Shown piece by piece: positions 2 through 59,873 of a DNA stretch of 64,000 bases (position 1 is the stretch's first letter; each line of letters opens with the position of its first letter). The notes beneath the pieces were generated by a model, which was not told where the DNA came from, did no database searches, and was given only the letters and a program-made list of their open reading frames with translations. The stretch covers positions 71,623-135,622 of the forward strand of contig CADBDF010000002.1 in assembly GCA_902793435.1 (NCBI GenBank). The letters are read 5' to 3'. Both the position numbers and the translations under genes were made by a program. The stretch is from an uncultured Pseudomonadota bacterium. Its GTDB lineage: Bacteria > Pseudomonadota > Alphaproteobacteria > Rs-D84.

Positions 2-817
2 GATAATATTAAAAATGTTGATGGAACTTCTGCGGTGAAAGAGCGTGTGTTATCAACATTGCAATCAACACAAAATAAAATCAATCAAAAGATTGCTTTG
101 CTGACGTCCGATTCCAAAATTATGATGTGTGTTAATGGGCGCGATATGAAACAAATTCGTGGGCGTGAATCCAAGACAGAAGCACGATTCCCTAATTTGT
201 TGGATTCGTCAATTATGGCAATTATAAATTCTGGGTTAGAAAAGGCTGGAAAGAATTATGCTAAAAAATATGATGAATTGCTTGCCAAGGCAATGGAAGA
301 GCAAGGCGATGAAAAGAAAGCGGCTTTGTGTGCGGCAATGGCAGAAGATAGTTCGTCTGTAAATAAAATTATTAATTTTTCTGGGGTTGTGTCGAAACTG
401 GGGGTTAATGGTGGTGGATATGAGGTTCGGCATGTGATTGATGGTATGACGATGAATCAATTGATGGCACAGCAAAAATCTGGAACAGGTTCGTATATTC
501 AGACTGATAACAATGGAAATATGGTGAGTCAAGTTGTTATGAAGGCGATGTATTCTGCTGAGACTAATACTTGTAAAGTAACTACTACTACTCAAGTGTG
601 TGAAAGTATGAAAGATGTTTATAATACATCGTCCAGTTCTTGCGGTGGTGGTGGAATAAGTCTTTCTACATGGGGTAGAGATGATTGTGGTAATGCTTCT
701 GTATTAGGCTTAAAGATTGGTGGTGGAGGCAAAGTAGAATCTTCAAAAACATTTAGTGGAACGGTGTGTACGAAAATGACGGCACCAGTTACCAAAACCG
801 AAGATATTAAAATGTAA
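2..817 (+). CDS. C-terminal part (5' end lies outside the window) of a cysteine-rich secreted-protein paralog related to the 45748..48219 product
   Basis: The frame is open from base 2. The segment IMMCVNGRDMKQIRGRESKTEARFPNLL parallels IQYCITGRNLDQITGKKGEKTTARFPNLL of the 45748 protein. The C-terminus is Cys-containing and ends in IKM, compared with VKM. A hairpin terminator follows. Confidence 0.6.
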   Translation, partial: DNIKNVDGTSAVKERVLSTLQSTQNKINQKIALLTSDSKIMMCVNGRDMKQIRGRESKTEARFPNLLDSSIMAIINSGLEKAGKNYAKKYDELLAKAMEEQGDEKKAALCAAMAEDSSSVNKIINFSGVVSKLGVNGGGYEVRHVIDGMTMNQLMAQQKSGTGSYIQTDNNGNMVSQVVMKAMYSAETNTCKVTTTTQVCESMKDVYNTSSSSCGGGGISLSTWGRDDCGNASVLGLKIGGGGKVESSKTFSGTVCTKMTAPVTKTEDIKM

Positions 818-4938: not shown

Positions 4939-6819
4939 TTATTTACAATCAGCGACAGATATTTTAGGTCCTGTTAATGCATCGTATGTGCCTATTTTGT
5001 TAATACCTTTACAGGTGACACTTTCGTCTTCATTGTTTATGTTGCAACATACTAGATAATATTTTTTCTCGAGTATATCGTTGCAAGAGTAAGCACATGT
5101 TTTAGTTTTTGTATCACAATCGACATCGTGTCCAGTTGATTTATCATATGTACTACAAATGCTTGTCGCTGTTAGCGTAGACACACATTTCAGTTCTGAG
5201 GCACTATTCGCTTTGGATGTTTGTATTGTGATACCGTTACATTTGAATGAGCTGGATTTTGTGTATTGTGGCGGGTCGACAAACCATGAACTGCTGTTTG
5301 ATCCTGACGTATTTGTTGTGTTGCTGGAACTGGTTTGTTTGGTGCATTTGCCATTGATAAGTTTTTGGGTTTCGTCGTCACATTGACATTGGTTCTTTTT
5401 CCATTTTCCACCAGAATCTTTACAATCTTTTTTTGCAATTGCGTCTGGGTCATCGATACATTGTTCGTTTTCATATTTTTTTGTTTCATCTGTACATTTA
5501 CATTGTCCCAATACGTTTAATTTGCCCCCGGCTTTTTCGCATTTGTCTTTCTTTTTCATATCAACACACATATCGCCATTTAATTTCTTGTCGTCTGGGC
5601 ATGTGCAGTTGTTGTTGTTGTATGCACCACCAGATTGAGTGCATTTTTTGTATGGGGTTAATGATTCTTCTTCGTTTTCATATTCTTCGTCTGCGGAATC
5701 TTCGTCTGTGTCATCAGGTTCTTTATCAACGCATTTGCCGTCTTTTAATACTTGACCATTTTCTTTGCAAGCATCTTCCAATGCGTCTTTGGCTTTCTTG
5801 GTGTCGATTGCGCGACTGATTGCCCCAGATGTTAATGCGCCAACCGCGGTACCAACCCCAGACCCCAACATTGCTGCAGATGCCGCACTTTGTGCGCGTG
5901 TTGCGCGATATGCGTTTTCTTTAAATGTTGTGATATCAATTCCAAACCAATCGGGTGTGCAATCAAATAATGAACCTGCATATAATTTTTTCGATGCCAT
6001 TGGGTGTGTTTTGTCGTCGCCTGCAAAAAAGTTCGCGGTAAATACACAGTCCAAAGATCTGTCGTCAAACAGGGCGCCCAATGTACGACATGAATTGCGC
6101 ATTTGGTCACGCAGTGTTTGCAGTTTTTGTTCGTCTGTTTTGATTTGTTTTTCTGCATCAACACGCACTATGCCAAATACATTTCCAACACGACCGCTTA
6201 GGCCAGAATCAGCCTCGGTACAATTTTGTGCGATTGTTTTGCATGCGTTGATTGCTTTGTCGCCCGCAGATTTAGATAAACATTTATTGAACTTTGGACC
6301 ACATTGTTGAATTATGCAATCGTTATAAGAATTTCCGCAATCCAAAACATTGTTGTATAACGCTAAACTGATTGCTTGTTTTTTGTCTTCTTTGATTTCA
6401 TTTGTAAATAATGTGAATTCGTGTGCGCTGCATGTTGTGTTTTTGCGACATGTGTTTAATTTGTCAGAAAAAGTTGTATCGCTGTCTGTTTCACATTTTT
6501 TATAATTTGCGCCACATGTGTTATTTATACATTTGCGTAAGTCGTTGTCGCAGTTATTTTGTGATGCCGATGATTTGACTTGTGCAGTGGCAGTGTTGCG
6601 ATTGTCACGTGCGTCAATCGCGGCGCGTTGTGCGCGAATTTTTTCGGCAATCGCGGAATCATTACTGGTGCTGTCGGTGCGATTGTTTAATTGGGTGCTG
6701 AACGTGGAACTTTTATTTTCAATTATATCGGCGGCATGCAAACGGGACTGGCCCAACATAAATGTTGTGCATGTAATTCCAAATAATATCAAAAGTTTTA
6801 AACTTACCCGTTGTTTCAT
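4939..6819 (-). CDS. Secreted cysteine-rich protein with a glycine-zipper helix and three tandem Cys modules
   Basis: The signal peptide is MKQRVSLKLLILFGITCTTFMLGQSRLHA. The Gly-zipper is AAMLGSGVGTAVGALTSGAI. Three repeats of the pattern C-x-(K/Q)-(S/A)-GG...C-x-C-(T/P/D)-D-(E/D)...(G/E)-x-C are present. Confidence 0.75.
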   Translation of the reverse strand: MKQRVSLKLLILFGITCTTFMLGQSRLHAADIIENKSSTFSTQLNNRTDSTSNDSAIAEKIRAQRAAIDARDNRNTATAQVKSSASQNNCDNDLRKCINNTCGANYKKCETDSDTTFSDKLNTCRKNTTCSAHEFTLFTNEIKEDKKQAISLALYNNVLDCGNSYNDCIIQQCGPKFNKCLSKSAGDKAINACKTIAQNCTEADSGLSGRVGNVFGIVRVDAEKQIKTDEQKLQTLRDQMRNSCRTLGALFDDRSLDCVFTANFFAGDDKTHPMASKKLYAGSLFDCTPDWFGIDITTFKENAYRATRAQSAASAAMLGSGVGTAVGALTSGAISRAIDTKKAKDALEDACKENGQVLKDGKCVDKEPDDTDEDSADEEYENEEESLTPYKKCTQSGGAYNNNNCTCPDDKKLNGDMCVDMKKKDKCEKAGGKLNVLGQCKCTDETKKYENEQCIDDPDAIAKKDCKDSGGKWKKNQCQCDDETQKLINGKCTKQTSSSNTTNTSGSNSSSWFVDPPQYTKSSSFKCNGITIQTSKANSASELKCVSTLTATSICSTYDKSTGHDVDCDTKTKTCAYSCNDILEKKYYLVCCNINNEDESVTCKGINKIGTYDALTGPKISVADCK

Positions 6820-6822
6820 TTT

Positions 6823-7680
6823 TTATTTTACCTTGGTGCATGCAGTTTTATGAAATTCGCATAAACTGTTTGCAATTGTTTTTTCTTGTGATGTTGCACA
6901 ATTATTGTTTGTGTTATTTTTGCAAACCGTTGTGACACAACTGTTGAAATCTGCGTTTGATTTGCAGTTGTTTTTTATAGAAGAAATTTGTTTTTCGCGT
7001 GCGGCCTGGTGCGCGGCAACGATTTTTTCAATGTTTTGTGATGTCGCCGATACAGTCGATTTGCGTGTTTGATTTAATTCGTCGCGGACCGTTGCAATAA
7101 AGTTTGTGCATCCAGTTGCCTTGGCAGAACATGTTGCAAAAAATTTATTAAATGTTTCGTCGTCTGGACATTTTGAATATGTTGCATCGCATTTGTCAGC
7201 GGCTGTTAAACATAATGATATTTCGTCGTTACATGTCGCAGATGTTTTTTTGTTTGTTGCAACCTTGGAAGCCAAACGTGACATGTCGTTTGTTATGCCG
7301 GCGGCGGTGCAAGATTTTTCAATCAATGGGTCATAAGATTCTGTCACATCATCAGCCGTACAATTTTGGACAATATCCAAACATTTTTTTGTTGCCCAAA
7401 CATAACGTTCGCCGGGGTCTTTTGGTGCAGATTTTAATTCTTTGGCGGAAATAGTGTTTTTTGATGTCGCGCCTGCGGAGATATTTTTTAACCCAGATGC
7501 CGGTTCGCCGGCATTTGATGTTCCGCAATATTGACAACGTGCCGCCGGATTTGATGATAAATTGATTGCACATGCAGAATCCAAACATTTTGTTAAATTT
7601 ATGCGCGAACATGGCGCCGCCCATGTTATAGAGGGCAAAACAAGCAAGCCAGCAATAAAAAATGCAAACTTTTTAATCAT
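6823..7680 (-). CDS. Secreted cysteine-rich protein, apparently co-transcribed with 4939..6819
   Basis: The signal peptide is MIKKFAFFIAGLLVLPSITWA. There are more than 25 Cys residues in CxxxC and CxxC-like spacing. Only 3 nt separate it from the downstream gene. Confidence 0.75.
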   Translation of the reverse strand: MIKKFAFFIAGLLVLPSITWAAPCSRINLTKCLDSACAINLSSNPAARCQYCGTSNAGEPASGLKNISAGATSKNTISAKELKSAPKDPGERYVWATKKCLDIVQNCTADDVTESYDPLIEKSCTAAGITNDMSRLASKVATNKKTSATCNDEISLCLTAADKCDATYSKCPDDETFNKFFATCSAKATGCTNFIATVRDELNQTRKSTVSATSQNIEKIVAAHQAAREKQISSIKNNCKSNADFNSCVTTVCKNNTNNNCATSQEKTIANSLCEFHKTACTKVK

Positions 7681-38614: not shown

Positions 38615-39985
38615 TCAATCTGCACTTTCTATAATCTCGTACCAGTGCGGAACAATAACACCGTTTTCTTCGGTTTCGACCAGCAGGCACTTTTTGCCGG
38701 CGGGGCAGTTTTCGTCTGGACGGGTTTGTTTGGTTGCCTGCAAATCTGCAATCGCCTTGGTTTGATTTATTGTGTTTGTGACGACATCACGTATGGTCGC
38801 AATCGTGCTGTTTAAATCATTTACGACCGGACTAAAACGCGCACTGTTATACGCAGTCGTCGCAATTTTGATTGCGTTGGTGGCGATTGTTGTGACAACA
38901 CTGGCCCCCGATGACAACAGGGTTGTAATGGTCATACCAGTCACACCGCCAGTACGATTATTAACCGGTGCGGTGGTCATGGTTTGTCCCGCGACAGATT
39001 CCGTTGTTGCTGTTGCTAACGGATATACGATTATAACAGGTGTTCCCGCGTTGTATTGTGCAGCAAGCCAAGCCTTAAATGCTGTTACATCATTATTTGC
39101 CGTATCATACCTAATTTGTAGCCAAGCCGACTCAGTCGCACGATAAATAGAGTTATCTGTTGTTAAATTGCCTGTAAATGCAAAATGCGAACACGCCATA
39201 ACGTTGCTTTCAGACACAGGAACCAAGCCTTGAACCCTAAATCTATTATTGTTTAATCCCCAAATCTCCGTTCCATCAAGCACCTTGACCCCGACATTGC
39301 GGGTGATTGCGCCAGTGTTGATATTTTGTGTGTCACGATAATCGCCCACACCCAACAAAGTCGCCACCGTCGCCGTATGATTTGCACTGTCCGCAATCGT
39401 TTCAACCTCGCCATCGGTGTAGATTTGTCCGTATGGCATATACGGTGTTGCAGTTGAGCCGCGTTCTAATTGTAAAATATCGTCACATTTATAAACGTCA
39501 TTTACACCAACCGTAAGATATAAATACTTTGCTGATGTTGCTGTCGTAATTGTTATATCTACACCCTCCGTTCCACCACCATTTTGTGCGGTTTGTAGCA
39601 CTTTGTCACTACTATCTACAACAACCCAATACGGTGTGTTGGCTTTTATTTTTCCAAAAGTATAAGTCGTATTTGGCTGAACTTCAATACGATAAACATT
39701 ATATCTGTTATTTGGTGTGGTAGAAAACCCTGTTTGACCAACGGTTGCAGAACTTATATAATTCCTACTTTGGTATGGTGTTTGGTCTTTATCAAACAAA
39801 TTCTTACTTACTTTCAACACCCCATTATTGCTCACAATGTCCATTGGTGTATTTGGGGTTGGTGTGCCGTTTTGTGTGACCAAACCCGCCACAGTCACCG
39901 ATGATATTGGACCCGAATTTGTTTCTGCTGACCAACCAGAAATCGTTACCAACAGTCCCAGCAACCCAAACAACAGTTTTTTCAT
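38615..39985 (-). CDS. Exported tail-fibre-like mosaic protein A (paralog of 49383..51428)
   Basis: The signal peptide is MKKLLFGLLGLLVTISGWSA. LQLERGSTATPYMPYGQIYTDGE resembles phage fibre or receptor-binding module junctions. Three blocks are shared with gene B. Confidence 0.75.
   Translation of the reverse strand: MKKLLFGLLGLLVTISGWSAETNSGPISSVTVAGLVTQNGTPTPNTPMDIVSNNGVLKVSKNLFDKDQTPYQSRNYISSATVGQTGFSTTPNNRYNVYRIEVQPNTTYTFGKIKANTPYWVVVDSSDKVLQTAQNGGGTEGVDITITTATSAKYLYLTVGVNDVYKCDDILQLERGSTATPYMPYGQIYTDGEVETIADSANHTATVATLLGVGDYRDTQNINTGAITRNVGVKVLDGTEIWGLNNNRFRVQGLVPVSESNVMACSHFAFTGNLTTDNSIYRATESAWLQIRYDTANNDVTAFKAWLAAQYNAGTPVIIVYPLATATTESVAGQTMTTAPVNNRTGGVTGMTITTLLSSGASVVTTIATNAIKIATTAYNSARFSPVVNDLNSTIATIRDVVTNTINQTKAIADLQATKQTRPDENCPAGKKCLLVETEENGVIVPHWYEIIESAD
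38630..39004 (-). repeat. Inverted homology block 3 (C-terminal module), partner 51036-51410
   Basis: The nucleotide sequence is largely identical in reverse complement and encodes TESVAGQTMTTAPV.NRTGGVTGMTITTLLSSGASVVTTIA...CPAGKKCLLVETEENGVIVPHW. Confidence 0.8.
39266..39472 (-). repeat. Inverted homology block 2, partner 50538-50744
   Basis: Only scattered substitutions occur over ~200 nt. It encodes GSTATPY.PYGQIYTDGEVETIADSANHTA.VATLLG.GDYRDTQNINTGAITRNVGVKVLDGTE. Confidence 0.85.
39791..39922 (-). repeat. Inverted homology block 1, partner 50091-50222
   Basis: It encodes TNSG.ISSVTVAGLV.QNGTPTPNTP......NNGV.KVSKNLFD. Confidence 0.75.
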
Positions 39986-40439: not shown

Positions 40440-43028
40440 TTAGCTGCCCGAGGAGTTATCTTCCCAGTGTGCAGACAATGTTGTATTTGATTTAATGTCC
40501 CATTTGTTTGCAGATGTACCGTCTGCGTTGTAATATTTTTTGTCATTGGCATCATAAAATCCTGCAAATGTAGAATTTGTTTTTGTGGGAAGTGTGCTTA
40601 GTGTAGGCATGTTCATACCGTATGATGCAATGACAGGTGTTGGACCATTTTGCCCACCATTAAGGTTAAATGTTACGGTATATGTGCAAAATGCATACAA
40701 TGTTGTATTTGATGTAATGTCCCATGCACGCGTTGCGTTTCCATTTGCATCAAAATATTGTGTGCCGCCACCGTTCGGTTCTGTGTAATATCCTTTAAAA
40801 CTGCTGCTTGTATCTGTTGGTGGGGTAATGGTGATTTTTGTGCCTTGTTTTATTTCAGCAGTATAATTGTTGTTGCTGTCGTTTTGTAAATCAAATGTTA
40901 TTGTATATGTTGCAGGTGTTATTATTGGTGATTTGCAATAACCCCAACTTTTATTTGCACCTGTTTCAGTATAGAATTGTTCCAATAATTCAACCGATGT
41001 ATCTGATGTGCTGTTATATGCGTTTGATACCCATATTCCACCCAGACGTTCGCATTCGCGCGATAATTCTGTGCCCATTGCAATACGCATTTTGTCCATA
41101 ACTATATTGATGTCTTGTAATACAGCGGTTGGAACATTGTTTGCCAATGTTTCATATTCAGATGGACGAATACAAACCTGCATCGCATAATTTACAAAAC
41201 GTTGATATAAACTGTTTGCATAATCAACACCACAGGTTTGTGTGTCTATTGATGATGTGTCGTTGCATTTCGCAATCGTGGCATATCGTTGGTCCCCAGG
41301 TGAATATACGCGACATGTGTATGGATATGTATGTAATGTATCCGTTGATTGAACCGCGCATAAATTATTTCCAAAATCTTGCAACAGATTTTGACATTCG
41401 GCGACAATTCTTTGACTGACAATGTCGTGCATTGCATTTACCAATGCCGTCAATCCATTTGGTCCGCCACCGTAAAGGTTGCTGCATGTGTCTAATTTTT
41501 CACGACATAAATCTTCGACGGTTTCCATGTTTAAACCCAATAATGTTTTGTCGCCTATATTACTGAAATCTTTTAATTGATTTGTTTGTGTGTCATAACA
41601 ATCATTTACAACACCCAAACATTCTGTGCGAACAGTACGAATTTTTTCTTGCTGTTTTTGATGGATTTCTATAATCGCCTGGCGCATGAATTCGTCCCAA
41701 ATGTCGCCAGATAAATCACGACATTTATCCAAAGATTTTTCTGCAAAAATTTTTTTTGTGTTTAATGTATTTACAATCATGTGGTTTGTTTGATTGTTTA
41801 ATATATTCCCAGATAATGATATTTGATTCGCCAGGTTATAAAAGTTTGGACTGTATATCGGTTCCCCAGAATCAATGTTTAAATATAATCCTGTGATGTC
41901 CAAACAATGCACAAAGTCAGGTCCGCATGCCGTATTCGCCGTCAGGTCTTGACGGACAGATGCGATACAATCGTTAATTGATAATGAATTGTGTGCATCG
42001 TAATTTTCCAGGCGTGCAACGCCCATTTCGCGACCTGTTTCACGAATTGTGCTGTTTGTTGCATTTTTTTGTTTATCTAAATTTGTCGCCAGATTAGAAC
42101 AATCGTTTTCTATATACATTCCGTATGCAGATATTATCATATTTAAACTGGATTCAGGACATTTTTCAGCCACCATGTTTGAACATTGTGCATTTACCGC
42201 GTTATACAATGTTTCGCCTGTCAGGTTTGCAATGTTTGCGCCCGATGCCAAATCTGTGGTCGTCCATATTGATTTTATGTCGCCACCGGCATCCAATGTC
42301 CCGGCGGTTGATAATGATTTATTTTTTGCCTGGGTTAAAACATCACTGATTGTATTTAATGTTTGTGCGGATTGTGAATTGTCGTGTGATGCCGCCACCG
42401 TTTGTTCGCCAACCGTTGCAGATGTCATTGCGGCAACTTCGCCCGCTGATTTTTTTATTATGTCCATATTTAAATCGTGAAATGCGGTTAATGAATCTGT
42501 GCTTTGCGATAGGGCAGATTGTTTTTGTTTGATTTCGTTTAATCTGGATGAACAAATACAACGGCGGTATGTGTCGTCCATTGATGCACAAAACTGGTCC
42601 ATACAGGTAAAGTATGCGTCGCGGCACGTTGTGTAATCTGCGCCAAATGCGGCCTCGTTATTTGTTGCAGAATTTGTCGGTAAAATTGATGCCGCGCGAC
42701 CAACAATACTTTTGTTTTTTATTGGGGTGTATAATAATCCAGAACGCGATGATATGACTGTGCGTTGTGGTGTGCGTGTTGCTATGTTTTTTGTGCTGCG
42801 TGCATTTGTTGTTTGTGGGCGTGATATGGATATTGCAGAACGTTGTGCGTTGCGCGGTTGTGATGATGTGTCACGTGTGCGCACAGATACAGTCGAACGT
42901 GAAACAGATTGGGTTTTTGTGTTTGTTGATGTGCGTGTTGGTGACGATGCAGACCGTTCAGCCGCATTGGCAACACCAATGCACAAACAGCATGATAAAA
43001 CAAGATATAAAAAACCCTTCCTATTCAT
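40440..43028 (-). CDS. Giant secreted cysteine-rich protein (family with the N-terminal C-x2-AY-x2-CMD-x-FC motif) with two C-terminal Listeria-Bacteroides (Flg_new) repeats
   Basis: The signal peptide is MNRKGFLYLVLSCCLCIGVANA, followed by a Ser/Thr/Arg-rich spacer and CRDAYFTCMDQFCASMDDTYRRCICS. The C-terminus has YTITFDLQND...FKGYYTEPNGGGTQYFDANG...TLYAF and YTVTFNLNGG...FAGFYDANDKKYYNADG...TLSAHW. Confidence 0.8.
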   Translation of the reverse strand: MNRKGFLYLVLSCCLCIGVANAAERSASSPTRTSTNTKTQSVSRSTVSVRTRDTSSQPRNAQRSAISISRPQTTNARSTKNIATRTPQRTVISSRSGLLYTPIKNKSIVGRAASILPTNSATNNEAAFGADYTTCRDAYFTCMDQFCASMDDTYRRCICSSRLNEIKQKQSALSQSTDSLTAFHDLNMDIIKKSAGEVAAMTSATVGEQTVAASHDNSQSAQTLNTISDVLTQAKNKSLSTAGTLDAGGDIKSIWTTTDLASGANIANLTGETLYNAVNAQCSNMVAEKCPESSLNMIISAYGMYIENDCSNLATNLDKQKNATNSTIRETGREMGVARLENYDAHNSLSINDCIASVRQDLTANTACGPDFVHCLDITGLYLNIDSGEPIYSPNFYNLANQISLSGNILNNQTNHMIVNTLNTKKIFAEKSLDKCRDLSGDIWDEFMRQAIIEIHQKQQEKIRTVRTECLGVVNDCYDTQTNQLKDFSNIGDKTLLGLNMETVEDLCREKLDTCSNLYGGGPNGLTALVNAMHDIVSQRIVAECQNLLQDFGNNLCAVQSTDTLHTYPYTCRVYSPGDQRYATIAKCNDTSSIDTQTCGVDYANSLYQRFVNYAMQVCIRPSEYETLANNVPTAVLQDINIVMDKMRIAMGTELSRECERLGGIWVSNAYNSTSDTSVELLEQFYTETGANKSWGYCKSPIITPATYTITFDLQNDSNNNYTAEIKQGTKITITPPTDTSSSFKGYYTEPNGGGTQYFDANGNATRAWDITSNTTLYAFCTYTVTFNLNGGQNGPTPVIASYGMNMPTLSTLPTKTNSTFAGFYDANDKKYYNADGTSANKWDIKSNTTLSAHWEDNSSGS

Positions 43029-43069
43029 ATTTAACAATAATGATACCAAAAAATGCGTATAAAAGGAAA

Positions 43070-43093
43070 TAAAAAATGCACCGTATGGTGCAT
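43070..43093 (-). terminator. Intrinsic terminator of infA
   Basis: The sequence atgcacc-gtat-ggtgcat has a T-run on the minus strand. Confidence 0.65.
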
Positions 43094-43115
43094 TGAATAA
43101 CAGAATAAATTTGCG

Positions 43116-43364
43116 TTATGCGTTTGGTGTGTCAGGTGTCGCACTGTTGCGTTCAATAAATGTGATGCGACCTTTGTCTAAATCATATGGGGTCATTTCA
43201 ACGCGGACCTTTTTTCCAACATTGACCCAAATGCGATTTTTACGCATTTTCCCGCAAACAGTTGCAATGATTTCATGGCCGTTGTCCAACATAACACGAA
43301 ACATTGTGTTCGGTAATTTGTCGGTGACTGTGCCAGTGAAAACGATAACGTCGTCTTTTGCCAT
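43116..43364 (-). CDS. infA: Translation initiation factor IF-1
   Basis: [69 protein letters not shown] matches IF-1. Confidence 0.9.
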
Positions 43365-43500
43365 AAAATAAATCCTTTTGTTTTGTTGCGGTAATAATAA
43401 AGCCAGAACACTAAAATATCAAGATTTTTTTTACTATCGCTTGAAACGATATGTTTTTTTTGATAAAATTATACTTGATTATAGTTATGCGGAGAGAGAT

Positions 43501-45726
43501 ATGAAAATAAAAAATCTTGCACTGGTTTTATGTTTTTTGCCGATTGCGGCGTGGGCTGCAACCGGTGAAAATAGCGCGCGTGTCGGTATGACGCGTTCGA
43601 ATTCTGCATCGGGGGTGCGTATGTCGTCGGTTAGTAATATCGTGACCAAAAAAGTTGCGGCTGCGCCGGTCGTGGAACAACGTAGCGGGGCAAGTGTTGC
43701 ATCAAATTCATCAGCCACAAATGATACAGATGTTGTCGAAGAAGACGAAGTTGTTGTGGCAACTGAAACAAAAAAAGCAACTGTGTCGGCGGAAAATTGT
43801 CGTGATGCGTATAGAGAATGTATGGACGATTTTTGTTTGCTGGACGAAACCGAGGGTTCGCGTTGTGCGTGCAGTGATAATATTGAACGGTCTAAAAGTT
43901 TAATTCAACAAATTCAAAAAATTCAAGGTGAGGCAGATGATTTATATACAACCGGTGTTGAACGCGAAAAATTAGGTGCCAAGGCAAAGTTGGTTTTTGG
44001 TTCGTCTGATGCGGCAAAAAAAAGTTCTTTGAAATCAGGATTGGATTTTTCAGCCTGGTTGAATAGTGGGACAGATGACGACACAGCAGATGTTGGCGAA
44101 GATATGGATATTGGTCAAAATCTGTATGCAATGGCGGCAGATGCGTGCAAAGCTGAATTGGCGGCGTGTGGTTCCAAGGCCAAGGCCGAAGAAACTTTAT
44201 ACAGTCGTATGATTGTTAATGATTGCAAGGCATTTGGAACATATTTAAATGACCAAAAACGCGAAGCAGAAATGAATAAAAAGACGGCCGAGGCGGCGGT
44301 TCGTTCTGCGCGTTTGGAAATGTTAAATACTACAAATAAATATAACCGCGGTGAATGTTTGTTGGTGTTTCGTTCTTGTATCGCTGACAAGGGTGGTTGT
44401 GGTGTGAATTTTGAAAATTGTTTGGACGAAGGTTTGCTGACCCGTCGTTCGCACGCATGCGAAGATGTGTTGGATCAATGTATGGCGGTGCGTGATGATG
44501 TTTTAAAAGATTGGCAAGAAGAATCTGTTGCGGTGTTAAAAGATGCGGCAAAGTATGCTGATAAAAATGAACGCGCAACATGTTTGGCAAAAATCCAAAA
44601 CTGTTTGGAAGAAGGTTGTTCAACATCTACGAATTCTGCGTGTTTGACAGATGTTAATGTTGCCGCAGGAATTTGCCCAATTATCACAGAATGCAATGAC
44701 AAAATACCAGGACTGCAAACAGTTATAAATGATAAATTGGGATATTTGCAAACAAAATTCTGTGAAAACGATTTAGATGCTTGTTTGAAAGATAAATGTG
44801 GAACAGATTTTACAAAACCGGAATGTGTTGGTAGAAATCCAACAGAAATTGCGAAATTGTGTCCTCAATCAATGTTTCCATCTTGCAAAGGCGCAACACA
44901 ATATGATGTGTTGGTGTCGTCTGCGATGTTGCATATGGATTATCAGTTGTTGACAGGTTGTATCAATCAATTTGCGGAAAAATTAACCGCTGTTTGCGGA
45001 ACAGATATGGCATGTATCCCGGTGTCTAAACTGTTGCCGGTGGTTGATAAATGGGTTGATTTGAATTCGGCTGATGGTAAAAAAATATTGGCAAATGCGG
45101 AAAGTGCGGCCAATACGGCGGTTGATGAATTCTTTGCAGATTTTAGTAAAGATTTGACTTTGTCTGCATGCCAAGATGTTTATGGAAAAAATCCAAAGAA
45201 AGTTAAAGATAAAACAGGTATGCAAGACAGTATTAATATGACTGCTAAAATGATTGCATATACCAATGCACGCGCACGCGCGGATCGTGAATTGGCATCG
45301 GTTATGAACGAATTGAAAATCAAAGAAGAAACAGATAGAAATCGTAAATATTGTATGAAAAAGTTCCAACAAGAACAAGAACCTGACAAGGAAGGTAGTT
45401 ATAGTTATATCCGCAGTGCAACATACGAACCAAGTTTGCAAAGTTGTCATGTGTGTCGTATGCAACGCGTTTGTGAAAAAGGTGGTGAAAAGAAATCTAC
45501 ATCTGCATTGAAATCTGCGGCGGGTGGTTTGGCGGCGGGTGCGTCGGCTGGAACAATGGTCAGTCCTGGTTGGGGAACGGCGATTGGTGCGCTTGTTGGT
45601 GGTATTGGTGCCGGTGTGATGGGTGCAATGTCTGGGGGCGAAGAAGAATTCTGCCAAGAATTAGAATCGTGCGAAGATATTAATATCGCCGGTGTGACCC
45701 AAGAAGAATTAGACGAATTACAATAA
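43501..45726 (+). CDS. Giant secreted cysteine-rich protein (same family) with a C-terminal glycine-zipper helix
   Basis: The RBS ggagagag precedes ATG 43501. The signal peptide is MKIKNLALVLCFLPIAAWA. CRDAYRECMDDFCLLDETEGSRCACSD and AAGGLAAGASAGTMVSPGWGTAIGALVGGIGAGVMGAMSGG are present. Confidence 0.8.
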   Translation: MKIKNLALVLCFLPIAAWAATGENSARVGMTRSNSASGVRMSSVSNIVTKKVAAAPVVEQRSGASVASNSSATNDTDVVEEDEVVVATETKKATVSAENCRDAYRECMDDFCLLDETEGSRCACSDNIERSKSLIQQIQKIQGEADDLYTTGVEREKLGAKAKLVFGSSDAAKKSSLKSGLDFSAWLNSGTDDDTADVGEDMDIGQNLYAMAADACKAELAACGSKAKAEETLYSRMIVNDCKAFGTYLNDQKREAEMNKKTAEAAVRSARLEMLNTTNKYNRGECLLVFRSCIADKGGCGVNFENCLDEGLLTRRSHACEDVLDQCMAVRDDVLKDWQEESVAVLKDAAKYADKNERATCLAKIQNCLEEGCSTSTNSACLTDVNVAAGICPIITECNDKIPGLQTVINDKLGYLQTKFCENDLDACLKDKCGTDFTKPECVGRNPTEIAKLCPQSMFPSCKGATQYDVLVSSAMLHMDYQLLTGCINQFAEKLTAVCGTDMACIPVSKLLPVVDKWVDLNSADGKKILANAESAANTAVDEFFADFSKDLTLSACQDVYGKNPKKVKDKTGMQDSINMTAKMIAYTNARARADRELASVMNELKIKEETDRNRKYCMKKFQQEQEPDKEGSYSYIRSATYEPSLQSCHVCRMQRVCEKGGEKKSTSALKSAAGGLAAGASAGTMVSPGWGTAIGALVGGIGAGVMGAMSGGEEEFCQELESCEDINIAGVTQEELDELQ

Positions 45727-45747
45727 TTTTCATAGATGGAGAGAGAT

Positions 45748-48219
45748 ATGAAAACAAAAATATTTTTGCGTTTTGGATTGTTAATTGCGATATGTACTGT
45801 GGCGATGCCTGGGTATTGTGCAACACAATCGTCGGGAAAACAATCTGCAATTCAACAAGGAACCAAAGTGCGCGCAAAAACAACCGCTGCGGGTTTATAT
45901 AACCAAGAATGTTATGATGCGTATTATGGGTGTATGGATCAATTCTGTATTTTGGATAACGAAGATGGTGGGTCGTGCGCATGCAGTGATAAAAATGCTG
46001 GATACGAGGCGCGTTTAGAAAAAATCAAAGATACTTTGACCGAAGCCGACAGATTGCAAACCGAAGAAGTTGAACGTGTTCAGGCGGGTGCAAATGCAGA
46101 TATTATTTTCAATGGCACACGCACATACGATAAAAAAACTGGCGATGTTGCAAAAAACACAAAATCTGCGGCGGAAAAACGTAAATCTTTGTTGGCAATG
46201 TGGGACGATACATTGGACGACGATGAAGATTTCGATATGGAATCGATTGCTGATAAAACAGGTGATGCTTTGTTTGCGGCGGCTGACGAATTATGTCGTT
46301 CACAGATTGATATGGATACATGTTCCAAAGATGTTAAATTATTAAAACAAATGTATTCGCGTCAAATCGTGTCTGATTGTAAAGGATTTGAAAACAGTAT
46401 TGTAAAAAAAGAGGCCGAGGCAAAAACGGCTATGAATTCTGCAAATGCGGCGGTCCGTAGCGCATTAAAAGAATCCTTGGATTCGGCGAATAAATACGAT
46501 CGTGGCGAATGTATGGTTGAATATAAAAAATGTATGCAAGGTCCAGATGCATGTGGCAAAGATTGGGAAAATTGTGTATTTACGGTCGCAGGGGAAAATA
46601 TGCAAAATAATGCGGCGGTCAGCACAGCCAAAACAACAGTAAAAAAAACAGTCACGTATGATATAACCGATTCTACGATGGAAATTTTGGAATCCAAACG
46701 TTATATTTGTGAACGCGTGTTGGACCAATGTGTCGCGGTGCGTGATAATGTTTGGAACGATTTCTTGAGAGAGGCCGCACCAACAATTAAATTGGCAGAA
46801 AGCAAAATAGAATCTAAAAAACGTCAATCTTGCCTGACTGATATTTCTAATTGTATTCAAAAGGCATGTAAAGATGATATTGTTGGCAAAGGCAAGGATA
46901 CAATGGACGCATGTTTGGCGCGTCCTGATATGGCACGCAGTTTCTGCAAGGTTGAAATTGACCCATGCGAACGTATGGAACCCCAGATTTGGGCTTATGT
47001 CAAAGATAAATTGGCGGCTATGCGTGTTGATGCATGTACCGAAGAGGTTAAAGATTGCTTTACCGATGAAAATCGTTGCGGCGAAAATTTCCAAAATTGT
47101 ATAGGTATGGATTACGCATATATTCATGATATTTGCCCAATCGATAAATTGGTCGTTTGCAAACAGGCAAATCCAAAATTCTCGATGAGTGATTTGGATT
47201 CTATGTTGATGGGATTGTATTTGAATATTGATAATGCAGCGCTGGAAACATGTCAAAACTTGGTGACCGAAAAAATGACCGAGGTTTGTGGTTCCACCAC
47301 AGATTGCAATAAATTTGCGGCGGACGAGGTTATTGGAACTGGCTCGTTGCGTTCGCAAAAAGATGGAGATGTTTATCGTGTGACTGGTATGATTTCATTC
47401 GGTTCGATTAAAATGGGTGACGCATCTGGTAATACAAAAGATGGTGAAGATAAATTGGGACCGGGTGAAATTGGTGTTGCAGATTATATCGCGCGTGTGA
47501 ATGAAAAGTTTTCAAACGAACCTGATGCAGATGCGATTATCCCAACAATTGAAGAAGAATTGAATAATATTGCGGGGACAATCAATCGCACAATTGAAAT
47601 GATTGAACAAGACCCCAAGATTCAATATTGCATCACTGGGCGTAATCTGGATCAAATTACGGGTAAAAAAGGCGAAAAAACAACAGCGCGTTTCCCGAAT
47701 TTATTGAATCAGGTTAAAATGCAAATTGCTATTTCGGCTTTACGTCAAGCCCAAGATAATTATAACAAAAAATTTACCGCGGCTGTGGCTGAGGCAACCA
47801 AAGACGCGTCTTTGGATGTAGCGCAATATATGTGTCAAAAGGTTGCACAACCAAAATTGCCGTCGATATTTAAAAAACTAGCCAAATCAGGTGAAGGTGT
47901 TTCTACGCCGGGGGTTGATGCTGAATTAACACCACCATACGCAATCAGTTATGATGTTAGCACAGGTTTGAAAAATGTTGATTTGACCAAGAATGGTGCG
48001 GCGTCTAACAGTTATGGCTTTACAAACAGCAACGGCAGTGGGGGAAGTACCACAACCGAAGTTACCGCTACGTTCAGTCGTGACACCAGAAATTGTCATA
48101 TTTGTCGTACGGTTTCAACACAAAGTTGTTCGACCAAAGGTGGAAATTGGTTCAGAAAAGCGAATACTTCTTGTTCGACATCTGCCAAGGATCCTGTTTG
48201 CGAAGATGTTAAAATGTAG
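45748..48219 (+). CDS. Giant secreted cysteine-rich protein (same family)
   Basis: The identical RBS context ggagagagatATG is used. The signal peptide is MKTKIFLRFGLLIAICTVAMPGYCA. CYDAYYGCMDQFCILDNEDGGSCACSD is present. It is collinear with the 43501 protein (NKYNRGECLLVF vs NKYDRGECMVEY; CEDVLDQCMAVRDDV vs CERVLDQCVAVRDNV). Confidence 0.8.
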   Translation: MKTKIFLRFGLLIAICTVAMPGYCATQSSGKQSAIQQGTKVRAKTTAAGLYNQECYDAYYGCMDQFCILDNEDGGSCACSDKNAGYEARLEKIKDTLTEADRLQTEEVERVQAGANADIIFNGTRTYDKKTGDVAKNTKSAAEKRKSLLAMWDDTLDDDEDFDMESIADKTGDALFAAADELCRSQIDMDTCSKDVKLLKQMYSRQIVSDCKGFENSIVKKEAEAKTAMNSANAAVRSALKESLDSANKYDRGECMVEYKKCMQGPDACGKDWENCVFTVAGENMQNNAAVSTAKTTVKKTVTYDITDSTMEILESKRYICERVLDQCVAVRDNVWNDFLREAAPTIKLAESKIESKKRQSCLTDISNCIQKACKDDIVGKGKDTMDACLARPDMARSFCKVEIDPCERMEPQIWAYVKDKLAAMRVDACTEEVKDCFTDENRCGENFQNCIGMDYAYIHDICPIDKLVVCKQANPKFSMSDLDSMLMGLYLNIDNAALETCQNLVTEKMTEVCGSTTDCNKFAADEVIGTGSLRSQKDGDVYRVTGMISFGSIKMGDASGNTKDGEDKLGPGEIGVADYIARVNEKFSNEPDADAIIPTIEEELNNIAGTINRTIEMIEQDPKIQYCITGRNLDQITGKKGEKTTARFPNLLNQVKMQIAISALRQAQDNYNKKFTAAVAEATKDASLDVAQYMCQKVAQPKLPSIFKKLAKSGEGVSTPGVDAELTPPYAISYDVSTGLKNVDLTKNGAASNSYGFTNSNGSGGSTTTEVTATFSRDTRNCHICRTVSTQSCSTKGGNWFRKANTSCSTSAKDPVCEDVKM

Positions 48220-48231
48220 GGGGTATTCGAT

Positions 48232-49140
48232 ATGGATAATATGAACGAAGTTGTCACCGCAAATATTCAAAATGATTTGCAACATGTGGCAGAAGTACAA
48301 CAAACTTTGACTGAACCCAAGACCGCGGAACAATGGCATGATTTAATCAATGGATTATTGGGTGGTGCGGTGGATTTTTGTCTGCGTTTGATTGCGGCGG
48401 TTGCAATTTTGTGGGTTGGTATGTGGATTGCAAAACGTGTAACCCGTTCTGTTAAATTTGCAATGGAACGGCGTGAATTAGAACCGTCGTTGATTTCATT
48501 TACATCATCATTTGTGAATATATTGGCGCGTATTTTTGTTATTATCATAGTCCTGACAACGGTTGGTGTGCAAATGACATCAATTGTGGCGGTGTTGGGT
48601 GCCGGTGCATTGGCGGTCGGTATGGCATTGTCTGGGACTTTCCAGAATTTTGCCGGTGGTATAATTATTTTGTTTTTAAAACCGTTCAAAGTCGGTGATG
48701 TGATTCAAACGGCATCTGGTCGAACTGGCACAGTTAAAAAAATTATGATTTTTACAACTGAATTACATACATTTGATAACCAGGCCGTATTTATTCCAAA
48801 TGGGCCGTTGGCAAATGGTGAAATTATAAATTTGTCAGACAGAAAAAATCGTCGCGCAGAAATCAAAATCGGTATTTCATATGGCGACAGTGTTGATGCG
48901 GCACGCAAAGTGATATTGGATACATTGGCGGCGGATTCACGCATATTAAAAACCCCAGAACCGTCTGTGTTTGTCAGTGACCTGGGTGACAGTGCGGTTG
49001 TTTTGACGGTATGGTATTGGACAAAGTATGCAGATAATTTTGCGACCATGGGTGATATACGCGAAGCATTGTATAAGGCATTGCCGAAAAAGAAGGTTAA
49101 TTTTCCATTTCCGCAAGTTGATGTCCATGTTAAAAAATAA
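48232..49140 (+). CDS. Mechanosensitive ion channel (MscS family)
   Basis: TM helices are followed by GAGALAVGMALSGTFQNFAGGIIILFLKPFKVGDVI, which is typical of the MscS pore helix and beta domain. Confidence 0.85.
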   Translation: MDNMNEVVTANIQNDLQHVAEVQQTLTEPKTAEQWHDLINGLLGGAVDFCLRLIAAVAILWVGMWIAKRVTRSVKFAMERRELEPSLISFTSSFVNILARIFVIIIVLTTVGVQMTSIVAVLGAGALAVGMALSGTFQNFAGGIIILFLKPFKVGDVIQTASGRTGTVKKIMIFTTELHTFDNQAVFIPNGPLANGEIINLSDRKNRRAEIKIGISYGDSVDAARKVILDTLAADSRILKTPEPSVFVSDLGDSAVVLTVWYWTKYADNFATMGDIREALYKALPKKKVNFPFPQVDVHVKK

Positions 49141-49203: not shown

Positions 49204-49291
49204 AAAAGCAACAACTTTTTTCAAAAAAATGAAAATTTACTTTTATCGTAAAATCAATAATTTATCAAAAATCGCAATTCGCCGTTTGGGT

Positions 49292-49312
49292 GTCTAAAAA
49301 AAACCTAGGTTT
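49292..49312. promoter_or_regulatory. Operator-like site, copy 2, abutting the -10 element of gene B
   Basis: This identical 21-mer lies 109 bp downstream of copy 1 and ends 4 nt before tgtataat. Confidence 0.4.
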
Positions 49313-49314
49313 TT

Positions 49315-49322
49315 TGTATAAT
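49315..49322 (+). promoter_or_regulatory. -10 promoter element (TGTATAAT)
   Basis: The sequence tgtataat lies ~60 nt upstream of ATG 49383. Confidence 0.4.
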
Positions 49323-49382
49323 CACAATATAGTAAAAAACCGCGGATTTCCGCCAGTTTATAAAATCGAGAGAGTTGCGAAA

Positions 49383-52385: not shown

Positions 52386-53564
52386 TTATCGGTTTGTTAA
52401 TTGTAATTCTATACGACGATTTTTCTGTAATGCCGCCGGTGTTTTGCCCAATTCAATCGGGTGTAAATCACCAAACCCAGATGGCACCAAACGACGACGC
52501 GATACACCGTTTTTCGCCAATTCATCAACAACCGCACTGGCGCGCAACATTGATAATTGTAAATTGTCGCGATATCCATGTGTGCCGGCAACCACAGGTT
52601 TGTTGTCGGTGTGACCATCAACACGAATTATCCATTTTACGTTCGGTGAAATCTTGTTTTCAAAATCTTTGATTACATTTGCAATCGCACCCAGTTGTTT
52701 TTTTCCATCAGGCGACAAATTATATTTGCCCGATGGAAATAAAATGTCACTGGAAATTATAAATCTGTCGCCATCAGGACGCATAATTGTTCGGTCGCCA
52801 ATTGCGTCTTTGATTGCGCGATAAAATTCCGATTGGTATTGTGCCATTTCATTTAATTCGGCAACTTTGTCAGCCAATGCGCGATTTAAATGGTTCGACA
52901 TGTTGATATATTCTGCCTGGACCGCGGCAACATCGGCGCGTGCGCGTGATAATTCAAATTGCAATTTTTCCATTTCTGCGTTTGATACAGCAACCTGGAC
53001 ATCGGCCTGGGCATCTAATTTTTTCTGTAAATCGTCAATTTGTGCGATTAATGTTGCACGTTCGTTTTTCTGGCGATTAACCTGTTTTTCCAATTCTGCA
53101 ATTTGTTCTTCGTATTGAGTTGTTAAATTGCGGTTGGATTGTAATTCGGTCACCTGGGCCTGTAAAGATGCGGTTTGTGATTCCAATGCCTGTAATTTTT
53201 GTTCGTATGCATTACTTAAATCGACAACACTGGCAGATTGCGCAGCCATGGTGGCCTCGTTAGAATTGATTTCTTCGCGTGCCATTAACAGCAGACGTTT
53301 TGCTTCTTGTTCTTCGTTTTCCATTTGTTGAATCAACGCAGCCTGTTCAGCGTTTGTTTGGCGCAATTCGGTCACAGTACGAATGCCACTGTTTTTATTA
53401 AATACCGATGTGGTCGTCCATAAAAACACAAATACTATTAATAAAAATATCAAAATGATTACCAGGTTCGAAAATAAATCAACAAACCCAGGCCATGCAT
53501 TTGTTTTTTCTTTATATCTTATGTTTAACATTGCTCTCTCCGTTGTTATTGTTTGGAACGTCAC
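52386..53564 (-). CDS. MotB/OmpA-like peptidoglycan-binding stator subunit with a long internal coiled coil
   Basis: The N-terminal TM region has a conserved Asp (WPGFVDLFSNLVIILIFLL). About 200 aa of heptad-like Gln/Glu/Ala-rich sequence follow. The C-terminal OmpA-like domain is IRVDGHTDNKPV...NLQLSMLRASAVVDEL...NRRIELQL. The start is uncertain (53564 or 53531). Confidence 0.7.
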   Translation of the reverse strand: MTFQTITTERAMLNIRYKEKTNAWPGFVDLFSNLVIILIFLLIVFVFLWTTTSVFNKNSGIRTVTELRQTNAEQAALIQQMENEEQEAKRLLLMAREEINSNEATMAAQSASVVDLSNAYEQKLQALESQTASLQAQVTELQSNRNLTTQYEEQIAELEKQVNRQKNERATLIAQIDDLQKKLDAQADVQVAVSNAEMEKLQFELSRARADVAAVQAEYINMSNHLNRALADKVAELNEMAQYQSEFYRAIKDAIGDRTIMRPDGDRFIISSDILFPSGKYNLSPDGKKQLGAIANVIKDFENKISPNVKWIIRVDGHTDNKPVVAGTHGYRDNLQLSMLRASAVVDELAKNGVSRRRLVPSGFGDLHPIELGKTPAALQKNRRIELQLTNR

Positions 53565-54240: not shown

Positions 54241-54375
54241 GGAATCCCTCTTATTATTATTAAATGTTAGAAAATTTTTTATAGGCACGTCAATAGTTTT
54301 GCATGTCCGCATAAAAAACTTGTTTTAATCATAAAAAATGGTAGAATATAAGGTATATAAAACTAGGAGAAAAAT

Positions 54376-59060: not shown

Positions 59061-59873
59061 ATGATTTGGACAATTTTAATCTTAGTTATCGCAATTGCTA
59101 TGTTCTTGTTCGGTGCAAAAGTACTGGGCGGTAATGGTAAAGGCGAAACATTAACACAAAAATGCATTAACTTATTGGCGATTGTTTTGATTGCTGGTTG
59201 TATGGTACGTTTGGTGACACCATATTATTTGACATCTGTAAATCCTATGATTTTACAAGAAATGGCAAATGGCTATCAAGAACAACAAGCTGCTGAAAAA
59301 AATAAAGCGATTCGCAAGGCTGTTAAGTCTGGTGCGGAATCCATGATGGCAGATGCCCCAATTTTGGGTAATGCAGATGCGAAAAACACAATCTTTATTT
59401 GGACAGATTTTTCATGCCCATATTGCCGCCGCGTTCATGGCGAATTGTCAAAGGTCTTGAAAGAACGTGATGATGTTCGCGTTGTTGTTAAAAACTTTTC
59501 TATCCATGGTGATTTGTCTGATGCACCTGCACGTGCGGTTATTGCTGCAAAAATCCAGGATAATGCCAAAGCAGCTGCGTTGGTTGAAAGTTTGATGACA
59601 AACGAATATTATTCCCAGGCTGATATGAAAGACAGAGCCAAATTGGGCGAAAAAGTCAAAGCTAATGTTTTGAAATTCGCAAAAGAAGCTGGCTTGGATG
59701 TCAAACAATTGGAAGCTGATATGCAAGGCGAAGTCGTCACACGTGAATTGGCGAACGTTCGTGGCATGGCCCAGGAATTCGAAATCAACGGAACACCTTT
59801 CTTGATTATCAATGAAAAGGCTTTCCCAGGCGCAATTCCATACAAATCAATTATTGAAGCGTTGGAAAAATAA
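59061..59873 (+). CDS. Membrane-anchored DsbA-family thiol:disulfide oxidoreductase
   Basis: An N-terminal TM helix is present. The thioredoxin-fold CxxC motif is FSCPYCRRVH, and GTPFLIIN lies near the C-terminus. Confidence 0.8.
   Translation: MIWTILILVIAIAMFLFGAKVLGGNGKGETLTQKCINLLAIVLIAGCMVRLVTPYYLTSVNPMILQEMANGYQEQQAAEKNKAIRKAVKSGAESMMADAPILGNADAKNTIFIWTDFSCPYCRRVHGELSKVLKERDDVRVVVKNFSIHGDLSDAPARAVIAAKIQDNAKAAALVESLMTNEYYSQADMKDRAKLGEKVKANVLKFAKEAGLDVKQLEADMQGEVVTRELANVRGMAQEFEINGTPFLIINEKAFPGAIPYKSIIEALEK

Follow-up and report, generated by a model that had tools for sequence, protein, structure and literature searches.

Exported, cysteine-rich paralogous proteins of a new family in gut Alphaproteobacteria of the Candidatus Enterousia / Rs-D84 type

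The 64,000-nucleotide stretch described here (the window; positions 71,623 to 135,622 of contig CADBDF010000002.1, assembly GCA_902793435.1) encodes four paralogues, A, B, C and D, of a new, uncharacterised protein family, which by kind belongs to the exported cysteine-rich envelope or surface proteins of host-associated bacteria. A (40440..43028, minus strand) is 862 amino acids (aa) long and consists of a signal peptide, a basic Ser/Thr/Arg spacer, a cysteine motif, a predicted helical core and a variable C-terminal module. B (43501..45726, plus strand; 741 aa) is predicted to have the helical core and a C-terminal beta sheet with a glycine zipper inserted, and C (45748..48219, plus strand) has 823 aa. 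Of D (2..817, plus strand) only the C-terminal 271 aa are present, the gene being cut by the window start. The reading favoured here, with somewhat less than even confidence, is that these proteins have a structural role in the envelope or at the cell surface, the stalk being resistant to proteases, one member being anchored and the tips being exchangeable and turned outward.

The source lineage is Candidatus Enterousia (Alphaproteobacteria, order Rs-D84), with genomes smaller than 1 Mb (PMC12306168). It is described as a partner-dependent organism living by fermentation only, with no respiratory chain and no flagella; genes for rod shape and peptidoglycan are kept, standard transporters are lacking, and many hypothetical membrane proteins are encoded (PMC12306168). 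An obligate symbiotic or parasitic life, with metabolites drawn from other cells, has been proposed for Enterousia, and Enterousia / Rs-D84 bacteria occur widely in the guts of ruminants, horses, chickens, termites and humans (PMC12306168).

Gene cluster and paralogy

An earlier reading of this DNA, made from the letters alone (the sequence-only reading), had proposed a cluster of three giant paralogous secreted proteins with infA embedded among them, and a further paralogue at the window start. The three open reading frames (ORFs) are present, and their paralogy is upheld by BLASTP (E=4e-59 to 1e-12): B and C align with 30% identity across 482 aa (E=4e-59), A and C with 20% identity across 431 aa (E=4e-16), and A and B at E=1e-12. 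With sizes of 741-862 aa the proteins are large rather than giant. The D fragment matches the C-terminal region of C (E=3e-19). Its full-length orthologue, on a metagenome contig (L081, 4072-6816; 914 aa), is 38% identical to C over 709 aa and contains a signal peptide, a spacer, the motif CKEKYYGCMDSFC...CLCS, the whole core and 36 mature cysteines. D, proposed on the strength of a partial ORF, is therefore a fourth full paralogue beside A, B and C.

The gene infA, for translation initiation factor IF-1, lies between A and B (43116..43364, minus strand; Pfam eIF-1a, 4.2e-24), as had been stated, and this position is a matter of conserved synteny. A terminator-like hairpin at 43075..43094 (minus strand; consensus scan only) parts infA from the start of A, so the embedding of infA is no evidence of a functional tie. 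C begins 21 nucleotides (nt) past the stop codon of B. The two genes were said to have a common ribosome-binding context, and GGAGAGAGATATG does stand 5' of both. The Shine-Dalgarno sequence GGAGAGAG occupies 43491..43498 (plus strand) before B and 45738..45745 (plus strand) before C, GGAGAGAG-type sites are conserved upstream of the C orthologues, and a promoter-like site (consensus scan only) precedes B. The mscS gene starts 13 nt after C, and the neighbours of the cluster are clpX, infA and mscS. Together, A, B, C and as much of D as the window includes take up ~8 kb of its 64 kb, or ~11 kb (17%) with the possible relatives F and G, described below, added.

Signal peptides, spacers and N-terminal motif

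Type I (Sec) signal peptides with A-x-A sites are kept in three orthologue sets, in agreement with the signal peptide proposed for each protein; the proteins are thus exported. The signal peptide of A (aa 1-22, ...GVANA|AE; 42963..43028, minus strand) was read directly, and its A-x-A is conserved in orthologues. No lipobox with a cysteine at the cleavage site was found, and a lipoprotein reading was rejected on account of the A-x-A type I sites and the lack of a conserved cysteine at position +1.

A spacer rich in Ser, Thr and Arg had been ascribed to all three proteins. In A (aa 23-134; 42627..42962, minus strand) this is strongly so, the 112 residues including 17 R/K, 4 D/E and 39 S/T, with just 18-20% pairwise identity between orthologues; the description does not suit B, the 80-aa spacer of which has an acidic patch, or C, with a spacer of 30 aa. 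After the spacer, A, B and C have in common the motif C-x2-AY-x2-CMD-x-FC followed by C-x-C-S, as had been reported. It reads CRDAYFTCMDQFC...CICS in A (42549..42626, minus strand), where the cysteine columns are invariant in 129 sequences, CRDAYRECMDDFC...CACS in B (43798..43875, plus strand) and CYDAYYGCMDQFC...CACS in C (45910..45987, plus strand). A loosened form of the motif gave four matches in the window, against 0.1 expected from codon shuffles, the fourth being in the ORF at 6823-7680. The internal matches that had been quoted as examples (NKYNRGEC.../NKYDRGEC... and CEDVLDQC.../CERVLDQC...) are also found in the B/C alignment.

Exported proteins that are otherwise unrelated (A, B, D, E, J and the F orthologues) share a second motif, of the type A-V-V-x-R ... 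S-R-M-P-T, located after the signal peptide. Examples are AAVRD..SR in A orthologues (42900-42965 in A), ARVGV.R...RMPxLS in B (43558-43640), GAVRAGGTSVARGRTPV in D (L081, 4135-4200), GRVGTTTARMPTMPTMSIN in E (2020-2120), ARRSMVAQNVMPAPRSV in J (15440-15520) and AAVVSRAGNRTSVASRMPTV in the F orthologues of L019, L038, L049, L053 and L061. The motif could conceivably act as a tag, peculiar to this lineage, for sorting or anchoring.

Search for known relatives and predicted fold

Pfam and NCBIfam searches with A, B, C and D returned only the Listeria-Bacteroides repeat Flg_new in A and glycine-zipper matches in B that stay below threshold. For the 50 longest and most diverse family members Pfam gave one sub-threshold match, to DUF7631 (21.9 bits vs 27), and for 49 A orthologues, scanned for fused domains, Flg_new only. 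A MafB match in A was dismissed as noise (E=0.13, 12.2 bits vs 25). No meaningful PHROGs match was obtained for the family proteins, and a PDB sequence-profile search with 129 family members yielded 0 chains at E<=10. The claim that the motif lies outside any characterised family is borne out by these searches and by structure comparison, in which the models of B and C had no Foldseek match at E<=0.001 in PDB, nor that of C in BFVD. At the top of the Foldseek rankings stood generic similarities to coiled coils (MukB, alpha-actinin, MscK) and to small sheets (CapZ, Q-beta coat). With no confident match by profile or structure, the novelty of the family stands; nor was any description of these proteins found in the literature on Enterousia and Rs-D84.

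AlphaFold2 models of B and C were built on the 129-sequence family alignment. Both are confident at the local level: the mean predicted local distance difference test score (pLDDT) is 79.1 for C, with a predicted TM-score (pTM) of 0.47, and 74.9 for B (pTM 0.48). Both models have the same succession of long helices (35-59 residues), then a small C-terminal antiparallel sheet of 3-6 strands which in C lie at 734-822. The sheet ends ...CED[IV]xM, not in an aromatic residue; together with the lack of a Pfam match this led to rejection of an autotransporter reading.

Cysteine pattern and disulfides

The cysteine content is 3.2% in A, 5.0% in B and 4.6% in C, vs 1.63% in 38 other ORFs of the window. 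In the 129-sequence alignment the B and C families, in spite of an identity of ~30%, keep the same 36 cysteine columns without exception (100%), and 22 of these are also 94-100% conserved in A. Mature cysteine counts are even throughout (36 each in B, C and the D orthologue, 24 conserved in A). Among 149 representatives, Cys 786 is lost together with Cys 818 (phi 0.92; 49 double vs 4 single losses) and Cys 794 with Cys 809 (phi 0.83), and Cys 262, 321, 374 and 389 are always lost as one set. Many cysteines lie seven residues apart on predicted helices. Invariance, even counts, paired losses and helical spacing favour 12-18 intramolecular disulfides, probably ~18 in B, C and D and ~12 in A, which would staple the helical fold.

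The module C-x6-C-x4-6-CG-x2-[FWY]-x2-C occurs five times in the window, vs 0.0 expected. C has it twice, as C-x6-C-x6-CG-x2-W-x2-C (46510..46575, plus strand) and as C-x6-C-x6-CG-x2-F-x2-C (47035..47100, plus strand). The N-terminal and C-terminal halves of the core can be aligned by hhalign over 95 columns (C 175-276 vs 395-451; E=1.6e-4, probability 51%), which hints at an ancient internal duplication.

A DsbA-like gene had been placed at 59061. It extends over 59061..59873 (plus strand) and encodes a thioredoxin-fold protein with a CPYC site and hydrophobic N-terminal segments (Pfam Thioredoxin_4 9.9e-22, DSBA 2.9e-18), a candidate disulfide catalyst for the family. The gene is 11 kb from the cluster and shows no evidence of linkage to it. 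The proposed dependence on disulfide formation is indirectly supported by the invariant cysteines, even counts, pairwise co-loss and the DsbA-like gene; the bonds themselves are deduced from this pattern.

Alternatively, the cysteines could ligate Zn, Fe or Fe-S in a metal- or cofactor-binding protein, which would suit an anaerobe without a respiratory chain for DsbB. Such binding is very improbable. Sec export means that the proteins cross the membrane unfolded, the two clear pairwise co-losses (786/818, 794/809) and the even totals in four paralogues speak for bonds, the i/i+7 spacing is that expected from helix stapling, CxxCH or ferredoxin-type spacings are absent, and a DsbA-like gene is present. 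On the other side, the joint loss of Cys 262, 321, 374 and 389 in A-type proteins could reflect a tetrahedral site just as readily as two disulfides, the metabolism is strictly fermentative (PMC12306168), and neither DsbB nor VKOR is among the window ORFs.

Distribution and conservation

A motif-pattern scan of one genome per GTDB species turned up at least 599 stretches, 589 of them confirmed; the following statements on loci refer to the best 80. These come from gut and rumen metagenome-assembled genomes (MAGs) labelled Candidatus Enterousia, Alphaproteobacteria or 'Rickettsiales', some being labelled only proteobacterium and one mislabelled Muribaculaceae, and one locus is on a closed chromosome of 958,618 bp. 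The order A(-)-infA(-)-B(+)-C(+) is intact in all species-level loci with sufficient contig, often with clpX upstream and mscS downstream. Identity across species is ~60-65% for C, ~55% for B and ~50% for A, compared with ~62% for mscS and ~80% for clpX and infA. C is 100% identical to a protein on a cattle-rumen scaffold. A profile search of 1.84 billion representative proteins returned at least 1033 clusters (50% identity) at E<=1e-3, 566 of them at E<=1e-30. The best 149 representatives divide by type into 65 D, 41 A, 28 C and 15 B; A has 837 homologues, and there are hundreds for each paralogue. The family is known so far only from gut Alphaproteobacteria of the Candidatus Enterousia / Rs-D84 type, and its description as lineage-specific holds for the best 80 loci.

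Decay of the paralogues would have weakened the multi-copy interpretation, but the genes are intact and syntenic wherever the locus is long enough. Orthologue identity near the mscS level, in intact genes, points to purifying selection and not to pseudogenes. It is accordingly next to impossible that the genes are duplicates in decay, belong to a mobile or phage-derived island, or are ORFs arising by chance. What could be adduced for such origins is that the genes at 38615-39985 and 49290-51428, on either side of the cluster, are variable paralogues in inverted orientation; against them stand the invariant cysteines, the house-keeping neighbours, the recurrence of the same intact order across the best 80 species-level loci and the hundreds of homologues of each paralogue. 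Phage or mobile origin in particular was rejected because of the synteny and the lack of PHROG matches.

C-terminal modules and strain variation

The C-termini had been said to diverge. This is correct insofar as the tails of A and C are variable; the C-termini of B and C are homologous, with the cysteine columns 783, 786, 794, 809 and 818 (C numbering) in common. A ends in two Listeria-Bacteroides repeats (40464..40907, minus strand; Pfam PF09479, 2.7e-10), as proposed, and the two stretches score above the gathering score (40.6 bits vs 27). Flg_new repeats are typical of surface proteins. They are present in just 6 of 49 A orthologues, and the last ~160 residues of A are essentially unalignable family-wide (0-8% pairwise identity). 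An A homologue (P0243) is 96% identical in the core and 38% in the tail. The closest genome (L001) has nucleotide identities of 94-100% over the cluster, the A tail gap and the C tail excepted. Its alignment with A is 61-86% gap at 40450-40750, consistent with one Flg_new repeat fewer; the difference is mostly a gap of about one repeat length, not substitution.

The C tail, a predicted beta-sheet domain (aa 701-823; 47848..48216, plus strand), is exchanged between near-identical strains. Homologues P0004 and P0005 are 98% identical to C in the core and 44-48% over residues 701-823, while in P0003 the core (88%) and the tail (91%) agree. Nucleotide identity with the closest genome falls to 56-79% at 47350-48400. 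In B, identity of the tail tracks that of the core.

The long glycine-zipper stretch that had been noticed in one C-terminus is that of B (aa 665-712, ...AGGLAAGASAGTMVSPGWGTAIGALVGGIGAGVMGAMSG; 45493..45636, plus strand), between model strands 648-660 and 716-728. A Gly-rich uncharged 40-mer (AGGLAAGASAGTMVSPGWGTAIG...), defined by a Gly share of 25% or more and no more than one charged residue, is found in 120 of 120 listed B orthologues, compared with 0 of 120 for A and 2 of 120 for C. One B orthologue (P0161) carries a precomputed PF13488 match; B itself has no match above the gathering score to the glycine-zipper profiles (PF13441, PF13488, PF05433) and is below the cut-off of NCBIfam YiaD_Gzip_OmpA (12.9 vs 175). 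In sum, A and C combine a conserved stalk with a tip that can be exchanged, and B has an anchor-like element that stays constant.

The same zipper enters into a different proposal, namely that the proteins are periplasmic struts, rigid spacers or tethers between peptidoglycan and outer membrane, with the basic N-terminal spacer and the motif after the signal peptide binding the wall and the B zipper lying in the inner leaflet of the outer membrane. This is unlikely, if by no means negligible. In its favour, the proteins have a Sec signal only, and no outer-membrane export device is visible; the models have long, rigid helices; the A-V-V-x-R ... S-R-M-P-T type motif recurs after the signal peptides of A, B, D, E, J and F orthologues; and the lineage has peptidoglycan genes (PMC12306168). 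The conserved B zipper also resembles the outer-membrane lipoproteins SlyB and YfgH (bioRxiv 10.64898/2025.12.22.696046, 10.64898/2026.06.08.730324). However, strain-level swapping of the A and C tails, like the Flg_new repeats, is hard to reconcile with a purely periplasmic location, the anchor-like segment is restricted to B, and the N-terminal motif is without a known wall-binding role.

Variable C-terminal modules would also be expected if the proteins were released effectors or toxins, stabilised by disulfides and acting on a host or partner cell, for instance as a multi-component membrane-active complex with targets set by the C-termini. Several paralogous helical proteins are encoded together, one with a hydrophobic Gly-rich segment. 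Such helical sets recall tripartite alpha-pore-forming toxins. A partner-dependent lifestyle (PMC12306168) and the hint of a eukaryotic partner from an ankyrin-repeat protein in the window point the same way. The family is, however, a universal syntenic core feature with house-keeping-like evolutionary rates and no PHROG match (PADLOC was not searched), and release as effectors is distinctly improbable. A ClyA-type tripartite toxin (Hbl, Nhe, Ahl) was rejected on Foldseek comparison with PDB, in which the best AhlB match had E=7.7 (probability 0.05) and C had none. A polymorphic toxin was likewise rejected, there being no small immunity gene 3' of C, where mscS follows after 13 nt.

Comparison with known systems

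The OmcB/OmcA proteins of Chlamydia are similar to the family in being exported, Cys-rich (~4-5%) and made by a host-dependent Gram-negative bacterium with a small genome. OmcB is beta-rich, whereas the Enterousia proteins are predicted helical rods with no sequence relationship to it, and an OmcB-type Pfam match was found in none of A-D, the 50 diverse members or the 49 A orthologues. The OmcB lattice is intermolecular; in Enterousia the even cysteine counts and paired losses favour intramolecular bonds. The chlamydial envelope depends on a Dsb system (PMC6752827), and OmcB doubles as an adhesin (PMC2229832). Unlike Chlamydia, Enterousia has no known developmental cycle.

The cysteine-rich Hcp proteins of Helicobacter, which are Sel1-like repeat proteins, form a lineage-restricted, multi-paralogue, secreted family in which helix pairs are bridged by disulfides. 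The Enterousia family is likewise lineage-restricted, multi-paralogue and exported. It differs in that its members are three to four times larger, have predicted helices of 35-59 residues in place of short repeats, and add variable C-terminal modules and the glycine zipper; no Sel1 repeat was matched by Pfam in A-D or in 50 diverse family members.

Stalk-and-tip adhesins (trimeric autotransporters, InlB-repeat proteins) resemble the family in their conserved stalk and decoupled C-terminal module, and through the Flg_new repeats of A. The stalk of the family differs in its probable disulfide-stapled helical fold, which has no structural match. Neither Pfam nor NCBIfam revealed a barrel of the autotransporter type, a sortase signal, a lipobox or any other known domain for anchoring or export.

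In SlyB and YfgH, glycine-zipper domains are reported to be embedded in the outer membrane (bioRxiv 10.64898/2025.12.22.696046, 10.64898/2026.06.08.730324). The conserved, uncharged, GxxxG-rich segment of ~40 aa in B is similar to that of SlyB, YfgH and the Rickettsia 17 kDa antigen. In contrast to SlyB and YfgH, B is no lipoprotein, having no lipobox, and its zipper is inserted in the C-terminal sheet of a 741-aa protein.

Proposed role in the envelope

As envelope or cell-surface structural proteins, the favoured reading, the paralogues would be taken out of the cytoplasm by their Sec signal peptides, and each would fold as an elongated, mostly alpha-helical body. Helix-helix contacts would be stapled by intramolecular disulfides, presumably introduced by the membrane-anchored DsbA-like enzyme. 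The glycine-zipper hairpin of B would most likely insert into a membrane as an anchor, as in SlyB and YfgH. A, C and D would have the same stalk, with terminal modules that are replaced between close strains and shown outward, and the tips may serve contact with the environment or with a partner, the bacterium being believed to live at the expense of other cells.

A more far-reaching version, which is quite unlikely, joins the four paralogues in one hetero-oligomeric, disulfide-hardened envelope organelle peculiar to Rs-D84. B would be the anchor, A, C and D the stalks with swappable recognition tips, and the motif after the signal peptide a sorting tag for Cys-rich proteins; the organelle would attach the cell to a partner for metabolites, or form a redox-hardened coat with which to survive outside the gut.

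The sequence-only reading had suggested a lineage-specific envelope or surface system that depends on disulfides. Its lineage restriction, its lack of a characterised family and, probably, its need for disulfides are borne out, while the location and the notion of a system are inferences. Several points weigh against an envelope or surface role as proposed. No secretion-system genes were found adjoining the cluster, and for A, C and D neither a route across the outer membrane nor an anchor was detected; the variability of the tails could have causes other than surface exposure. The zipper of B is modelled at low confidence and its Pfam matches are below threshold (Gly-zipper_YMGG 11.5 bits vs 28.9, Bacteriocin_IIc 15.5 vs 27.1), and the pTM of the models is just 0.47-0.48. 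The proposed disulfides are deduced from the cysteine pattern and co-loss. Nor is a route for the re-oxidation of DsbA visible, the lineage having no respiratory chain (PMC12306168) and the window ORFs including no DsbB or VKOR.

Possible remote relatives and other genes of the window

ORF G (6823..7680, minus strand) encodes 285 aa with 20 cysteines, a signal peptide and the sequence CSRINLTKCLDSAC...CQYC. The family aligns to a 6-sequence G alignment with its cysteines in register (hhalign E=3.2e-4, probability 39%), and all six G orthologues have exactly 20 cysteines. By these alignments G is probably a compact remote relative of the family core. ORF F (4939..6819, minus strand; 626 aa, 40 cysteines, signal peptide) has the module C-x6-C-x4-CG-x2-[FY]-x-KC twice and is possibly a remote relative (hhalign E=3.4e-3, probability 9.5%). 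Orthologues of F and G are found 4-8 kb from the cluster in L019, L038, L049, L053 and L061. Further Cys-rich ORFs which, like F and G, have a signal peptide and no Pfam match are I (16248-17609, plus strand; 23 Cys in 453 aa), E (1944-4163, plus strand; 27 in 739) and H (7811-8323, plus strand; 7 in 170). Short Gly-rich uncharged segments that recall the B glycine zipper are GAVVGASVGLGAGGVATAITAF in E (3000-3060 and 3640-3700), TVGGAVGGAAIGVGS in J (16000-16060), IAGVVLGTAGGLITSSVV in I (17480-17540) and MLGSGVGTAVGALTSGAIS in F (5830-5900).

The genes at 38615-39985 (minus strand) and 49290-51428 (plus strand), which flank the cluster in inverted orientation, encode secreted proteins that are 58% identical over 464 aligned columns (E=2e-158), have the common end ...CPAGKKCLLVETEENGVIVPHW and gave no Pfam or PHROG match. 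The region of the 38615 gene is ~55% identical to the closest genome, vs 94-100% for the backbone. The ORF at 8438-11854 (plus strand; 1138 aa) has weak N-terminal ankyrin matches (Ank_2 E=7.4e-5, below the gathering score); an ankyrin-repeat protein, if real, hints at interaction with a eukaryotic partner. A choloylglycine hydrolase family protein (26443-27516, minus strand; CBAH, 3.4e-60) belongs to a family including bile-salt hydrolases and fits the gut habitat. The overlapping pair at 53512-54312 and 52386-53564 (both minus strand) encodes a MotA/TolQ/ExbB-like protein (weak, E=6.4e-4), then a protein of 392 aa that has an OmpA domain at its C-terminus (2e-17) and weak Pfam matches of coiled-coil type. 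The pair is stator-like or Tol-like, though the lineage is reported to be without flagella (PMC12306168).

Significance for Enterousia and the family

The family is conserved, costly and chemically unusual, and is a prime candidate for an envelope or contact apparatus of the Enterousia lifestyle. Having neither a Pfam model nor a structural relative, it would, once defined, fill an annotation gap for thousands of gut metagenome proteins. Up to 18 probable disulfides per chain in a strictly fermentative anaerobe also raise the question of how periplasmic disulfides may be formed without a respiratory chain.

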